Part shown: positions 46,939 through 64,000 of the stretch, one piece after another
Layout: each line of letters opens with the position of its first letter
How positions within the stretch are numbered: position 1 is the stretch's first letter
From: Planctomycetota bacterium
Lineage (GTDB): Bacteria; Planctomycetota; B15-G4; SIAN01
Assembly (NCBI GenBank): GCA_031409275.1
Contig: JANNXA010000043.1
Location: 1-64,000 of the forward strand
Reading direction: 5' to 3'
Length of the DNA: 64,000 bases
Notes under the pieces: model-generated
Seen by the model: only the letters and a program-made list of their open reading frames with translations
What the model was told of the DNA's origin: nothing
Databases searched by the model: none
Program-made: the position numbers and the translations under genes

Positions 46939-49011
46939 ATGGAGCCGCAATCGGATCGCGCGTCGCGGCGCGGCACGCTGCTCGTGCTGGCGCTGATGGC
47001 GGCGTTGCTGCTGCTCGCGGCCGGGGCGTGGTGGTGGTTGCGAGTGGCGAGCGCGAAGCCGCGTTCCGGCTCGCCGACGATCGTCGGAGTGGGCGCGGCG
47101 TCGGGCCGCGGTCGCGACGCCCGCGCGAACTCGGCGGCGGATGACGCAAGCGCAGGGCATGGCGGCTCGTTGACGAGCGCCGACGCGCTCTCGGCGCGGC
47201 GCGCTGCCGAGACCTTCGATCCGTTGGCGACGCCGGCGCCGTCCGAGATCGATGGAGTGGAGCGCGAAGGGAAGGCGCTCTTCTGGGGACGCGTGTTGGC
47301 GCCCGACGGCTCGCCGTGTGCCGGCGCGACGCTGTGGCACGACGGCGTCATCTCTGGAACCAGCGACGAGCAAGGCCACTACCGTCTGGTCGTCGCGCAA
47401 CGAACCTGGGATTCAGGGCGCACCAGCAACCAAGGGTTCGAGCATTGGCTCCACGCGCGCAAGGAAGGCGTGGGGGTGACGCAGGCGTGGTGCGGTCGCT
47501 GCAGCGGCCGCTGCGATCTGCGGCTCGATCCTGGCTACGCGGTGGCGGGTCGCGTCGTCGCGCGTGGGAGCGGGGCGCCGCTGTCCGGAATTGTCGTCGA
47601 GTACCATCTACCGCTCGTCGCGCCGACCGGCGCGTTGCGCCGCTTGCTTCCGCTGCGCACGGTGAGCGATGAAGCTGGTGCCTTTCGCTTCCAGACGCTG
47701 ATGGGGTCGCGCTTCGCGTTGCGGGCGAGCGGCGCGGAGTGGGCGTCGGATGGGTGGTTCGAATTCGACGTCGATCCGAAGCGCGGCCGCGACCGCCTCG
47801 ACTTCGAGCTCGAGCCGCGACTGATCGCGAAGGGTTGGTTCACGCCCTGGCCGCCTCTCGGTTTCCCGCCGGCTGCGGCGCTCGACGCACGCGTCGTCGC
47901 GCTGGCGGCCGGTGGCCAGGCGATCGCGGACGAGCCGGACGCGACACGAGTCGCGGACGATGGCTCCTTTGCGCTGCGCTTCGCCGCCACTGGCACGCTC
48001 GAACTGCGGCTGCAAGTGGCCGATGACTCGCCCTGGAGCTGCCGGATCGACCTGCCGTGGGAGCCGACGCCGGTCGATCTCGGTCGCATCGAACTCCCCG
48101 CTCCCGCGCGCGTGACCGGGCGGGTCGCACTGCCGGCGGAGCTGCTCGAACTGGGCTTCGAGTTCGTCGTCGTGCAACCGACTCTGGCGGCGCCGCGCAT
48201 CGTGCGAGTCGCGCTGGACGCGCAAGGCCGTTTCACCTCGCCCCCGCTGGCGAATGGCGGCTTCCTGCACGGAGTCGTGCTGGGTGATGAGCTGGCGATC
48301 GCGGGGACGTTGGCGAACTTCGCGCCGCGCAGCGGCATCGCGGTGGGCGATGGCGAGGCGCAGCCGCCGCTGGCCGCCGGCGAGACGCGCGACCTCGGGA
48401 CGCTGGCGCCGCCGGGGCCGCTGCTGGCGGGCCGGTTGACGCTCGCCGACGGCAGCGCCGCGTTCAATGCGATCGTCGAGCTGGCGTGGGACGTCGAGGA
48501 CGCAGGGGATTCGTTCGCGACGCTCGCCGACGCTGCGGGGCGCTACGTGATCGGCCGACGCCTCGGCTTCGAACCCGAAGAGCTCGCGGCGATCGCGAAG
48601 GGAAACGGGCGCATCGTCGCCCATCACCACGCGGAGCGCGGACGCTCGCAACCGCTGCCGGCGCTCACCGCCGGTGGATCGATGCGCGTGGATGTTGCGC
48701 TCGATCGCGGCGCAGCGGCCAGCGGCCGCGTCGTCGATGCGCAGGGTGCGCCGCTGGCGGGCGCGCGCTTCCTCTTCTTCCCGGTCGGATGGACCGGGGG
48801 GCGGTCGCAGGAGCGCGTGGCTTGGAGCGATGCAGAGGGGCGCTTCAAGGTCGCAGGGCTCGCGCCGGCCGGCTACTTCGTCATTCGCGATCTGCTCGAA
48901 GGCGACGGCGAGGAGGGCACCTCGATGGAGTCGTTTGGCCTGTTCGGCCAGTTCACGGCGCCGGCGAGCGACCTCGAGTTGCGTCCGCTCCAGGGCGATC
49001 GGGAGGAGTGA
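46939..49011 (+). CDS. Membrane-anchored carboxypeptidase-regulatory-like repeat protein
   Basis: Repeated GRV..G.P..GA...SD..G.F/Y modules after an N-terminal TM helix. Confidence 0.7.
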   Translation: MEPQSDRASRRGTLLVLALMAALLLLAAGAWWWLRVASAKPRSGSPTIVGVGAASGRGRDARANSAADDASAGHGGSLTSADALSARRAAETFDPLATPAPSEIDGVEREGKALFWGRVLAPDGSPCAGATLWHDGVISGTSDEQGHYRLVVAQRTWDSGRTSNQGFEHWLHARKEGVGVTQAWCGRCSGRCDLRLDPGYAVAGRVVARGSGAPLSGIVVEYHLPLVAPTGALRRLLPLRTVSDEAGAFRFQTLMGSRFALRASGAEWASDGWFEFDVDPKRGRDRLDFELEPRLIAKGWFTPWPPLGFPPAAALDARVVALAAGGQAIADEPDATRVADDGSFALRFAATGTLELRLQVADDSPWSCRIDLPWEPTPVDLGRIELPAPARVTGRVALPAELLELGFEFVVVQPTLAAPRIVRVALDAQGRFTSPPLANGGFLHGVVLGDELAIAGTLANFAPRSGIAVGDGEAQPPLAAGETRDLGTLAPPGPLLAGRLTLADGSAAFNAIVELAWDVEDAGDSFATLADAAGRYVIGRRLGFEPEELAAIAKGNGRIVAHHHAERGRSQPLPALTAGGSMRVDVALDRGAAASGRVVDAQGAPLAGARFLFFPVGWTGGRSQERVAWSDAEGRFKVAGLAPAGYFVIRDLLEGDGEEGTSMESFGLFGQFTAPASDLELRPLQGDREE

Positions 49012-50882
49012 CGCGGCGCGCCGCGGCGCTCACCTCCGCCAGGAGTCGCGCGAAGTCGATCGGCTTCTCCAGCAACGGAAAAGCGCGCCGCTGGATGAAG
49101 CGAGCCACTTCGGGGGCGACCACGTCGCCGGTGATCGCGATGGCACGCGTGGCGAGCTCCGGCCAGCGCGATTGCACGCGCTCGAGCAGCTCGATGCCGC
49201 TCATGCCGGGCATGCGCAGGTCGGTCACCAGCACGTCGATCGGCTCGGTCGAATCGAGCAGGGCCAACGCCGCGGCGCTGTTCTCGGCCTCGCGAATCAC
49301 GAAGCCGTGGCCGCTGAGATAGCGGCGCAGCAGTTCGCGGACCGGCGCCTCGTCGTCGACGAGGAGCACGCGTGGCGAAGGCGGCTCGACGCGCGGAGCA
49401 TCGCGGGAGGGAGGCTCGATGGCTGCGGTGTGCGCGGGGGTGGCCGCAAGCTGGCCATCGCGGCGGGCGAGATCCGTCGACTCGCCCACCGGCAGTCGCA
49501 CGACGAAGCAGGCGCCGCGACCGCCGTCGATGCGCGTCGAGGTCGTGATCGAGCCGCCGTGCGCCCGCACGATGCGTTGCGAGATCGCCAGGCCCAGCCC
49601 CGCGCTTCGCTGCGCGGACTTCGTGGTGAAGAACGGATCGAAGACGCGCTCGCGCAGCGCGGCTGCAACGCCGGGGCCATCGTCGCTGCAACGAAGGAGC
49701 ACGTGTTGCGGACCGTCGCGGAGCGCCTCGATCTCGATGTGTCCATCCGGTGGCAGCGCTTCGAGCGAGTTGGCGAGGAGGTTGGCGATCACCTGCTCGA
49801 GCCCGGTGGCGTCGGCATGGATCTTCGGCAGGTCGGCAGCGAGTTGCGTCGTCACCGTCACGCGCGTGCGCGCGAGCTGCGGACCGATGTCGCGCTTCAC
49901 CCGTGCCACGACTTGCGCGATCGACACCGGCGCGTAGCTCACGTGGCGCTGGCGCGTGATGTCGAGCAGGCCGCGCACGATGGTGCTGCATCGTTGCGAC
50001 TGCTCGATGATGGTGCGCGCGGGCTGGCGCAGATCGTCGGAGAGGCGAGGATCGAAGTCAGCGGGTTGTTGAGCTCATGTGCGACGCCTGAGACGAGGAC
50101 GCCGAGCGCTTCGAGCTTCTCCGATTCGGCGAGACGGCGGTGCAATGCCGCTCGTTCGGCCCGCGCATCCTCCGCTTCGTGCTCGACCCGCTGGAAGACG
50201 GTGATCAAGAGCGCCACGGCGAGCGCCGTCTGCATCAGCAGGTCGATGAACGAGTTGTAGTGGGCGAGCCCCCAGATGAACGAGGCCAAGAACTCGGACT
50301 GGAACCGGATCGAACCGAAGGAGATGGCGTAGAGCACCCACAGCAGCGCGAGCAGCGCGAACACGATGCTCGCGGCGCGCGAGCCGAAGCTGCGCCACTG
50401 CGCGGGAGCGCGCGCCAGGTAGAGGGCGGCCATCGTGCAGCACACGGCTGCAAATGGAGCCTGCAGCGCCATGGCCGAGTTGAGCTGCGGGGAGAGGAGC
50501 GGGGTCGCGGCCGCGCTGAGGCAGAAGGCGCCGGCGACGAGCGGCGTGGCGCGCGGCAGCGGCTTGCCGACGTAGCGCGCCACGCCGGTCAGCAGCCCAC
50601 CGAAGTAGGCGAGCTTGCTCAACTGGTAGACGACGTCGAACGGCACACGCAGCCACGAAGGACCCCACAACGTGCCGGGCGGCGGCAGTTCGAGCACCTG
50701 GTAGCGCGTGAAGACCGTGACCAGCGCGACACCGAGCGCGCCGAACGCGACGCTCCAATCGCGCAGGTAGCGATGGCTCGAAGCAAGGCGGCGCAGCGCG
50801 ACGAACGTGCCCGCCAACAGCAGCGGGCGACGGTTTGGACCGAGATCCCGATGAACGAGAGCCGAGCGTCTTCGAGGTTCAC
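48953..50882 (-). pseudogene. Membrane hybrid histidine kinase (TM sensor, HisKA, HATPase, REC) broken by two frameshifts
   Basis: MNLEDARLSFIGISVQTVA / LLLAGTF shift near 50825; HELNNPLTSIL / LSDDLRQPARTIIEQSQRC shift near 50045; downstream DDGPG, FFTTK, GLGL and LVDDE...DLRMP...EKP intact. Confidence 0.75.
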
Positions 50883-50970: not shown

Positions 50971-52404
50971 ATGACGCTGTGGCTTTCGTGCCTGCTCGCC
51001 GTGCATGTCGGATCCGCCAGCGAAGGCCAGACGGATCGCTACCGCCCGCTTGGTGTGAATGCGCAGGGGATGGCGCTCTTCGAGCGGCCGCGCGACGGTG
51101 CGCGAGTGGTCTGGATCCCGGCCGGCTCGTTCAAGATGAACGGCTACTTCCCGCGCCCGACCAGCGAGCCCGAGCATGAGTGGGTCTGGGTCGACGGCTA
51201 CGCGATCGACGAGACCGAAGTGACCAATCGTCAGTTCGCGGCGTTCCTGAATGCCACCAAGATCGAGAGCGATGCCGACGGCCATCCCCTGCTGGTCGAA
51301 GTCGAGCATGGGCTCGAGCAGGTCGATGGCCTCTGGCGGCCAAAGCTCGGCTGCGAACAACTGCCCGCGCTCGGCGTCACCGGCTTCGGCGCGATCGCCT
51401 TTGCGCGCTTCGTCGGCGGTGATCTACCGCTGCTGCCGGAATGGCAGAAGGCCGCGGGCGGCTTCGAGGGGCGCATCTTTCCTTGGGGCAGCGAGGAGCC
51501 TGACGCGACGCGCGCGAACTTCCGTCGCTTCGGTCCCGACCTGCCGATGCCAGTGAAGAGCTACCCCGCTGGAGTGAGTCCGTTCGGCTGCTACGACATG
51601 GCGGGCAACGTCTACGAGCGTGTCTACTCGGGTCGGGGTCGCGGCGGCAGCGCCGGGGCGCCCGCGATGATCCGCGGCGGGAGCTGGGCGTCGCCCCATC
51701 CGCTCAATCTGCGCACCTTCGACCTGTGCATGCAACCGCTCGAGGTGGGCGACCGCACGGTCGGCTTCCGTTGCGTGGTACGCAGCGGCGCCGGCTTGCC
51801 GGTGGCGCCAAGCGACCCGCTGCGCATGGCGCGGCACTGGGACGCCGCGCTGCGCGAGGCGCGCGAGCGCAACGTGCCGATCCTTCTTTCGCTGCAGTAC
51901 GACACCTGCGGCCAGTGCGATCGCACGAAGGTCGGTCTCTTCCGTGATCCGGAGTTCATCCGCGGCTGCAATGCCGGCGCGGTGCTGGTGGTGGGCCACG
52001 TCGCGCACGACGGCGCCGACGATCCGCATCCCGAGGACGCGAGCGGACGCTGCACGCTCTACCCGCAGCTCGAATGCATGGAGCACATCGACCTCTTCTA
52101 CGAGGGGATCAAGCGAGTCGACGGCTTCCGCGTGTCGCCCGGCAACTTCCTCCTCGATCCGCGTGCCGACGACGCTTCCCGCAATCGCGACGATTGGGTC
52201 CTGGTCGACGAGGCGATGCTGCCGAAGTCGGGCGTCGGCACCGAGGCGTACCTCGACGCGATCGCGGAGGCGCAGACGATGCTCGGTGCGCCGAAGCTCA
52301 CTCACGAAGAGTGGGTGGCGATCGACGCGGCGCGACCGAAGGCGGAGCCGGAAGACGCTGGCGACGAGGCAGCGGACGATGACGATGACGATCAAGATCG
52401 GTGA
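50971..52404 (+). CDS. FGE-sulfatase (SUMF1-like) domain fused to a thioredoxin-like CxxC domain, with acidic tail
   Basis: IPAGSFKM, ETEVTN.QF, SPFGCYDMAGNV, RGGSW and VGFRC; then WDAALREARERNVPILL...CGQC; AGGAG RBS. Confidence 0.82.
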   Translation: MTLWLSCLLAVHVGSASEGQTDRYRPLGVNAQGMALFERPRDGARVVWIPAGSFKMNGYFPRPTSEPEHEWVWVDGYAIDETEVTNRQFAAFLNATKIESDADGHPLLVEVEHGLEQVDGLWRPKLGCEQLPALGVTGFGAIAFARFVGGDLPLLPEWQKAAGGFEGRIFPWGSEEPDATRANFRRFGPDLPMPVKSYPAGVSPFGCYDMAGNVYERVYSGRGRGGSAGAPAMIRGGSWASPHPLNLRTFDLCMQPLEVGDRTVGFRCVVRSGAGLPVAPSDPLRMARHWDAALREARERNVPILLSLQYDTCGQCDRTKVGLFRDPEFIRGCNAGAVLVVGHVAHDGADDPHPEDASGRCTLYPQLECMEHIDLFYEGIKRVDGFRVSPGNFLLDPRADDASRNRDDWVLVDEAMLPKSGVGTEAYLDAIAEAQTMLGAPKLTHEEWVAIDAARPKAEPEDAGDEAADDDDDDQDR

Positions 52405-52587: not shown

Positions 52588-53577
52588 TCAGCTGCCGACG
52601 AGTTCCGCCATGTGCTTGGCGCGCTTGCCGGCGCGCGTCTCGCCGAACTTCTCGCCGAAGGCGTTCAGCGCCTTCACGACGGCCGCATCGAGGCCGTCCT
52701 TGGCGATGCGCTTCTCGAGCTTCTCGAGCTGCTTGGCCGCTTCGCGCTCGGGAGCCATCTCCTTGGCGGTCAGCTTGCTGCTCAGCTCGGTCAGCTTCGT
52801 CGCCAGTTCGTGGCCCGCGAGCCCCTTCGCCAGCGTCGCCGCCAGCTTGTCCGCCTGCTCGAACTCGGCCGACTCGATCAGCCAATCGAGCCGCGCGAGC
52901 TTCGCCTTCGCGCGCACGGCGAGCTTGCCGGAGAGTTTGTCGGCCGCGTCCTTCTCGACGCCATCGGGGACCGCTTCGAGCGACTTGATGGCCGCCGCGA
53001 AGTTGCCCTTCTCGAAGTCCACCCACGCGGCTCGGCAGAGCGGTCCGAGATCGCTGGGGCCCTTCTTGGCGAGCTTCAACTGCTCCTTCAGCGCTTCCTC
53101 GATGGCCGTGTGCGCCGAGAGCGGGTTGTCATTGATCAGGACTTCACCGTCGTTGCTGAGCACGACGCAGTGCGGGATCCCGCCGGCGCCGGTCTCGAAC
53201 GGCGGCTCGCACGTCCAGATGGCGGCGTCGCTGAACCACTTCTTCTGCAGGACGAACTTCTCCATGTCCTTGGCCGAAGCGCCCTGCGACTCGATGAAGA
53301 GGAACTGCACGTCGTCGCCGTACTCTTCTTGCATCTTGATGGCCAGCGGCACGGCTGACCCGACACAAGGTCCTCAGCGAGTTCCCCAGAACTCCACGAC
53401 GACCGGCCGCCCTTGCAGGTCGGCCAGGCTCTTCACGCCGCGGCCGTTCACCAGTGGCTGTTGCCAAGTGTAGCTCTGTTTGGCGCCGACTTTGGCGACG
53501 CCTTGCGCCACCGCAGTGCTGCCGGCCGTCAGGACGACGGCGGCCGCTGCGAAGCGCAACGTGCTCACGAACGACAT
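52588..53577 (-). CDS. Probable secreted TlpA/thioredoxin-like selenoprotein (UxxC), read through TGA at 53374-53376
   Basis: One frame: signal peptide ...GRPVVVEFWGTR-TGA-GPCVGSAVPLAIK...GIPH; U at codon 68 of 329; SECIS-like hairpin downstream. Confidence 0.85.
53341..53360 (-). promoter_or_regulatory. Putative bacterial SECIS element
   Basis: mRNA GGUCAGC-CGUGCC-GCUGGCC: 7-bp stem (one G-U) beginning 13 nt after UGA; G at loop position 2. Confidence 0.7.
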
Positions 53578-53823
53578 GTCTTCGATCTCCCTCTGGAAAC
53601 AGGCGGAGCGGTGGGTCCACCCCGCCGCGGAACTGTGTGCACGGTTGGGACGCACGCTCGGAACCGAGGGCCCCTGTTTCATGGCCGCGGTCGGAAGTGC
53701 GTGGCGCCGGTTTACCGTTTCGTCTTCGGTACGACTGCAACGGAGATGAGGAGCGTCATTTCCAAGTCATCTGGCGTGCGGATTCGCCGCTTCGGGCGCC
53801 GCGCGTCGCTCGACTGCCGCGAC

Positions 53824-63450: not shown

Positions 63451-64000
63451 ATGACGTCAATCGCGCTCCTCGCCCTTTCAGCCGTCGCGGTCCTGCAGCC
63501 GGTGGGTCACGAAGGGCCGCGGCCGCTCGCACCCGCCGACGTCGCTGCGCTGCATCGCGAGCTCCTTCCCGCGCGCGACGAACCGTGGCAGACGATCGGC
63601 TGGCGCGTCGATCTGCTCGCCGCGCGCGACGAGGCGATCCGCGCGAAACGTCCGCTCTTCCTGTGGGCGATGAACGGCCATCCGCTCGGCTGCGTCTGAA
63701 ACAACGGGGTGCTCGACCGTGAGTCGAGCTTCGCCGACCAGGACGTGATCGAGCTGCTGCAGCGCCGCTTCGTGCCGGTCGCGCTCGACGTCTGGTACGA
63801 GGAGCGGCGCCAGGACGCGGCGGGGGAGTTCTTTCGCAAGGTCGTTGCGCAGCGCGCCGGGCTGCAGCCTGGCCAGACGACGCAGGGCTTCTACGCCTTC
63901 GGGCCCGACGGAACGCTGCTCGAGGGGTGGAACCATCGTGGCGTCGATCGGCTGAAGGAGCGGCTGAAGGCGGCGCTCGAGGAGTGGAAGCCATCGGTCG
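63451..64000 (+). CDS. Probable SelN-like thioredoxin-fold selenoprotein (CxU), read through TGA at 63697-63699; runs off the window
   Basis: Signal-like N-terminus, WRVDLLAARDEA..RPLFLWAMNGHPLGCV-TGA-NNGVLDRESSFADQDVIELLQRRFVPVA...; frame stays open to the window end; SECIS-like hairpin. Confidence 0.82.
63711..63729 (+). promoter_or_regulatory. Putative bacterial SECIS element
   Basis: GCUCGAC-CGUGA-GUCGAGC: perfect 7-bp stem beginning 11 nt after UGA; G at loop position 2. Confidence 0.72.

Follow-up and report, generated by a model that had tools for sequence, protein, structure and literature searches.

Does the TGA that interrupts this thioredoxin-like reading frame end one gene ahead of another, or does it specify selenocysteine (Sec) inside a single gene, and if so, what would the product do? 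Thioredoxin-fold proteins with a UxxC active site are, as the original prediction stated, a known selenoprotein class: redoxin, Prx-like and cd02966 types are catalogued as selenoprotein families in Table 1 of PMC13188914. The locus was examined within the window (the whole 64,000-nucleotide stretch of planctomycete DNA analysed), in the source genome and across related genomes.

One reading frame with a single internal TGA

The two open reading frames reported separately at 53374–53682 and 52588–53352 lie in the same frame of the minus strand and join at the TGA at 53376–53374. Together they form one frame of 329 codons plus stop at 53577–52588 (−), matched by full-length orthologs; the only other TGA, at 52590–52588, is its genuine stop. 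The internal TGA falls exactly at the first Cys position of the thioredoxin motif, in the context VVEFWGTR-U-GPC-VGSAVP. The frame fusion claimed by the original prediction is thus borne out by the sequence. We refer to the codon at 53374–53376 as the putative Sec68 of the U-G-P-C motif, an assignment based on the sequence, the homolog column and independent contigs. The predicted resolving cysteine, Cys71 (53365–53367, −), is kept in all 12 close homologs.

Translation most likely starts at ATG 53577, because the Shine-Dalgarno-like sequence AGAGGGAG (53587–53594, −) places GGAG 9 nt upstream and the starts of orthologs match, and the product would therefore have 329 amino acids with U68. A start at ATG 53682 was rejected, as orthologs begin at the equivalent of 53577. 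Residues 1–24 (53506–53577, −) have the appearance of a cleavable signal peptide by eye (Arg, hydrophobic core, AVA-Q), and similar hydrophobic, signal-like N-termini were seen by inspection in homologs, which would fit the export originally predicted. A promoter and terminator scan returned no promoters and two terminator-like sites, against 1.1 expected, and no RNA runs were listed among the nine runs available.

Four sequencing runs, of which one possibly gave rise to the window, one comes from the same study and two from other studies, supply contigs that cover the codon at 53374–53376, and none of the four has any other letter there. Sequencing error at the TGA is ruled out by these contigs: in those from other studies the codon is retained as TGA, not TGC or TGT.

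Decoding of the TGA

The source genome (G000, 92.9% complete) carries all of selA, selB, selC and selD, which settles the earlier question of whether it might lack Sec machinery. The selA (E 7.8e-123), selB (E 1.7e-99) and selD (E 6.4e-101) matches exceed curated cut-offs, selD with an in-frame TGA of its own in CAG-U-AAK, and a single tRNA-Sec with anticodon UCA scores 76 bits against a cut-off of 47. By eye, this tRNA-Sec (G000:C40:205337–205433) has an apparent G-G mismatch at the eighth acceptor-stem pair. TGA is in ordinary use as a stop in this genome, which also has tRNA-Trp(CCA), and its sole tRNA with a UCA anticodon is tRNA-Sec.

Homologs are informative on the same column. Searching 41 related genomes gave 12 full-length matches at E < 1e-60, with TGA in ten and TGC in two (L028 and a paralog in G004), so that Sec or Cys is present at the position, as had been anticipated. 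The Cys paralog of G004 (L052:7499–8491), with CPPC, divergently adjoins that genome's Sec copy. A family profile built from 47 rows and searched at E ≤ 1e-25 hit 170 of the 301 Planctomycetota genomes sampled. The best 150 of 328 matches comprise 123 with TGA, 26 stop-free and one with TAG, a tally that leaves outside it 178 weaker matches, some of which may be thioredoxin-only. At the motif, 46 distinct full-length loci (the top-scoring and therefore a biased sample) have TGA in 42 cases, Cys in three and Ser in one, and their tree needs four separate changes at the column, the direction of change not being established with a midpoint root. Among the matches listed, TGA copies occur in 91 genomes and always together with Sec machinery: selA is present in 89, and the other two have selB and tRNA-Sec. 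In G009, selB and tRNA-Sec are above cut-off. For comparison, selA was found in 221 of the 301 genomes; in the selA-negative genomes G049 and G068 neither selB nor tRNA-Sec was found, and the matches listed there are stop-free only.

A hairpin follows the TGA, as originally noted. Its apical stem-loop (53341–53360, −) consists of 7 bp closed by the 6-nt loop CGUGCC, which starts 20 nt after the UGA, and its lower stem reaches about 53369/53328. With −13.8 kcal/mol it fits the bSECIS consensus taken from Fig. 2A of PMC13188914 (a loop of 3–9 nt, G in the first two loop positions, 16–37 nt spacing and MFE ≤ −7.5). In the bSECIS search proposed earlier, the hairpin passes the model filter, but so do 72 of 120 ordinary TGA stops of this GC-rich genome, which makes the filter unspecific here. 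Folding energy was rejected as proof of a SECIS element, being no better than chance in four fragments (z −0.3 to −1.9). Covariation is more telling. In 11 orthologs, 72 of 77 cells are paired and five of the seven pairs show compensatory changes on both sides; the score is 0.634, a value that none of 500 shuffles reaches (0.144 in shuffles) and that sliding the partners brings down to 0.091 or less. These controls are somewhat inflated, since the structure was derived from the query sequence and the aligned rows are relatives of one another. The compensatory changes alter the encoded residues (SAVPLA, SAVPQA, SSVPTA, TSVPMS), and in both Cys copies the stem and loop are degraded. It is this covariation across orthologs that sets the hairpin apart from chance. 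At four-fold sites, 22 of 120 comparisons differ within the hairpin and 129 of 275 upstream of it (pairwise counts, not independent); codons 13–25 are likewise low (4 of 41), which means that a low count does not single out the hairpin. Of 30 loci from the wider family, 13 have no bSECIS-model match and six are unscorable, the former pointing to weak or different elements in other subfamilies.

Taken as a real stop, whether through pseudogenization, two separate genes or sequencing error, the TGA would account for the fragments that databases hold separately and would agree with the unremarkable folding energy of the hairpin. However, 42 of the 46 rows, drawn from many families, share the TGA at a single column whose only alternatives are Cys or Ser; this, its presence in contigs from other studies and its constant company of Sec machinery argue against a real stop. 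Reading as Cys or Trp is opposed by the tRNA complement and stop usage described above. We regard all these possibilities as extremely improbable, and decoding of the TGA in the 53577–52588 gene as selenocysteine, judged from sequence data, as very likely.

The gene is not isolated in this respect. A screen of the genome turned up 27 candidates for TGA read-through, among them this gene and selD. Pfam or NCBIfam families are matched by 21 of the remaining 25, three of these scoring over the cut-off of a model dedicated to the (seleno)protein (Trx7/PDZ, ArsC-like and VPGUxxT type 2). The list is incomplete, because a first coding-score screen with strict thresholds missed the 53577–52588 gene itself, and at least one candidate (C27:158314) is probably false. 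Since the largest known bacterial selenoproteomes comprise 46–63 genes (Table 2 of PMC13326102; section 10 of PMC13188914), that of this genome is large but no record.

Several candidates deserve mention in their own right. One lies in the window at 63451–64000 (+), continuing to G000:C43:64683, with its TGA at 63697 in GHPLGCV-U-NNG; it has a hairpin and a signal-like N-terminus, and no match in Pfam or NCBIfam. Another (G000:C23:24919–26079), with C-U-G-S-G and no family match, may resemble eukaryotic selenoprotein N. Two FG-GAP repeat proteins (G000:C3:1660–2625 and C30:17407–18714) have an in-frame TGA followed by Cys. A distant paralog of the gene under study (G000:C16:170267–171283) has the same two domains, the motif FRTW-U-GPC and an additional Cys-rich C-terminal tail; its helical domain is related to that of the 53577–52588 gene (94%), and it has no match to the bSECIS filter. 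The helical N-terminal part of another paralog, C7:85994, proved unrelated to the helical domain (probability 0.1).

A TlpA-type thioredoxin domain with a TPR-like tail

Modelled in its mature form, the protein has two domains (pLDDT 93.6, pTM 0.88). Residues 25–172, approximately (53062–53505, −), form a thioredoxin domain of the TlpA/ResA/DsbE type according to the model and to fold and profile matches: it superimposes on 3eyt_A with Z 17.0 (rmsd 2.3, 140 aligned residues), on 3gl3_A with Z 16.1 and on ResA 2f9s_A with Z 14.2, and the best PDB match of the profile is ResA 4nmu (E 6e-27). The GIPH motif noted in the original prediction is found at residues 133–136 (53170–53181, −), its Pro135 being unchanged in all 47 aligned rows and its cis geometry deduced from the fold. 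None of the Pfam and NCBIfam models reaches its cut-off for this protein (Pfam Redoxin 21.8 versus 26.6 bits, NCBIfam ResA 23.2 versus 170 and TlpA 17.9 versus 230), and more distant family members score far better on the same models (best E 5e-20 for Redoxin and 1.1e-26 for ResA).

The long helical C-terminal extension reported earlier corresponds to an all-alpha domain at residues 174–329 (52591–53058, −), modelled as eight helices with pLDDT 94.5. Its fold matches to TPR proteins are weak (at most Z 6.8, across some 50 residues), and searches with the domain alone reached neither E ≤ 0.001 in Foldseek nor Z ≥ 8, which does not imply a new fold. TPR-like is a fair label because its profile finds BamD (E 0.0036), LapB, CpoB and long TPR-repeat proteins.

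With the catalogued UxxC selenoproteins the protein shares UxxC in a TlpA/redoxin fold, a bSECIS inside the gene and Cys homologs; it differs from them in the fused 155-residue TPR-like domain and in the C-x-x-x-x-V-P spacing. Table 1 of PMC13188914 has no entry named for a TlpA plus TPR architecture; as this distinction is drawn from entry names, some overlap with those entries may exist. Nor did we find a paper on such a selenoprotein in a literature search that covered few subscription journals. The family may already be present in BSepDB under a generic name, as that resource covers Planctomycetota genomes.

That standard annotation would miss the gene is confirmed by the protein database, in which 32 of 33 homologs are fragments of 246–260 amino acids that begin after the TGA. 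Those fragments, lacking the active site, are named 'hypothetical protein', and the sole full-length homolog, P0006, has Cys and carries the name 'TlpA family protein disulfide reductase'. A helical-domain profile collected 631 protein representatives at E ≤ 1e-10; among the best 150, 109 are shorter than 285 amino acids, 34 have 285–420 and seven are longer. The 34 full-length representatives, a set that cannot include Sec copies, have CxxC in 16 cases, one Cys at the motif in six and none in 12, so redox catalysis is not required in every family member, 18 of the 34 being without an intact CxxC. The subgroup without motif Cys, mostly with the cis-Pro, includes P0120, P0133, P0151, P0155, P0176, P0185, P0186, P0202, P0205 and others.

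Predicted function and redox partners

Thioredoxin-fold proteins attack disulfides with the nucleophile at the first motif position, the second Cys resolves the mixed bond, and a membrane protein of the DsbD type recharges them. We consider it reasonably probable that the locus is a single Sec-decoded gene for an exported thiol-disulfide oxidoreductase with a TPR-like tail, recharged by DsbD. SelB would bind the hairpin and deliver Sec-tRNA at codon 68, and the signal peptide would export the protein. Sec68 would then attack a disulfide in an envelope protein held by the TPR-like domain, Cys71 would resolve the mixed bond, and the Se–S bond would be re-reduced by the DsbD of the genome, with its predicted Sec in the gamma domain. 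A role as periplasmic disulfide reductase is likely, the direction (reductase rather than oxidase or isomerase) being assumed from the fold class.

The genome has one DsbD_TM match over cut-off (C51:106234–108702). It has two domains at the N-terminus, and a TGA (FT-U-INC) lies in frame in its C-terminal thioredoxin domain, which makes it a predicted selenoprotein; in relatives, this domain has TGA in 14 of 24 among the matches listed. TrxA is the usual electron donor of DsbD, and its absence from the searches of the source genome counts against a textbook DsbD relay. Canonical TrxA (TIGR01068) was not found in any of the seven genomes of the source genus and its sister genus and is present in all 34 other genomes of the order, the surveyed genomes being drafts of 70–94% completeness. 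TrxB was matched in five of five genomes of the source genus. One possibility is that three tandem NrdH/YruB-like glutaredoxins (G000:C51:270211–271046), one of them with U-PPC, stand in for TrxA; such glutaredoxins also occur in TrxA-positive relatives.

Neighbouring genes encode a VWA/HEAT protein, an FGE-sulfatase–thioredoxin fusion, a peptidase M2, a Na+/H+ antiporter, IspG and a histidine kinase. The arrangement is kept only within the genus and partly within the family, changing beyond it, and no pathway clue or functional link was found in these genes. The convergent neighbour (50971–52404, +) bears a signal and combines, in one fusion, an FGE-sulfatase domain and a Thioredoxin_7-like domain containing CGQC; it adjoins the gene genus-wide. 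Further along, a histidine kinase/response regulator gene (48953–50817, −) is split into two overlapping ORFs; relative to G004, 31 bases are missing near 50045, by real frameshift or assembly error.

As the leading alternative, the same selenoprotein could act mainly as an exported chaperedoxin, with the TPR-like domain as holdase or scaffold and Sec68 protecting client cysteines. The order of domains, with the helical TPR-type part placed after the thioredoxin fold, is that of CnoX/YbbN, and some family members lack CxxC, like the E. coli CnoX with SxxC (PMC8129009). The representatives with no motif Cys or a single one nearly always keep the cis-Pro, and such redox-dead members suggest an independent binding or chaperone function for the TPR-like domain, by analogy with CnoX. 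Weak structure and profile matches to 2r5s and 3qdn, presumably YbbN proteins, point the same way; however, those to their TPR domains fall short of significance (E 0.086 to 0.17). In contrast to CnoX/YbbN, a cytoplasmic partner of GroEL/DnaK, the protein is moreover predicted to be exported, given its conserved signal-like N-terminus, and its thioredoxin domain is TlpA-type, not TrxA-type, with a Sec active site. Retention of Sec and hairpin in most of the family argues for catalysis, and we hold a mainly chaperone role to be rather unlikely. A broader version is also unlikely: that these are phylum-wide, uncatalogued exported selenium chaperedoxins (Sec-TlpA plus TPR holdase) at the end of a relay with the Sec-containing DsbD gamma domain, running without canonical TrxA in this lineage, in a bacterium that encodes heme-copper oxidases. 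The genome has two COX1-family matches; Sec-rich bacteria are mainly anaerobes according to a 2026 review (PMC13188914), which makes no mention of Planctomycetes.

More specialized reductant roles have been weighed as well. ResA, the best PDB sequence match, shares with the protein, as do TlpA and DsbE (CcmG), the fold, FW-x-x-x-CxxC, the cis-Pro loop and a predicted N-terminal export signal, and the single CcsA-like locus of the genome (C33:145601–149018) has no adjoining CxxC thioredoxin gene that would provide the ResA/CcsX-type reductant of cytochrome c maturation by System II. Unlike these, the protein has its first Cys replaced by Sec, carries an additional TPR-like domain and has a signal predicted to be cleavable rather than anchoring. 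Against such a role, it lacks the Glu two residues before Pro (ResA E80 in CxxC-x-x-E-x-P, here C-VGSAV-P), the gene lies outside any ccs or ccm locus and is unlinked to cytochrome c genes, and at least six other TlpA-like genes could serve; the role is quite improbable. TlpA-fold domains supply MsrAB or peroxiredoxin-type enzymes in other bacteria, and this genome has signal-bearing candidates for a Sec MsrAB and for Sec peroxiredoxin fusions. The gene is unlinked to any of these, and a dedicated reductant of periplasmic peroxiredoxin or MsrAB, like an exported oxidase or isomerase, appears highly doubtful. A DsbD-recharged exported oxidoreductase remains our preferred reading.

The gene is well supported and mis-split; it ranks as a rather ordinary case within an established class of selenium enzymes, and it leaves knowledge of Sec insertion and of thioredoxin-fold function unchanged. 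What it corrects is a systematic annotation error, the one behind the 109 short helical-domain fragments, and a curated model is merited because the family is common (170 of 301 genomes) and mostly Sec-encoding. Sec genes and a few selenoproteins have been described in some Planctomycetes (PMC4807772). In this regard, the locus adds to the evidence that many Planctomycetota use selenium in redox proteins predicted to be exported.
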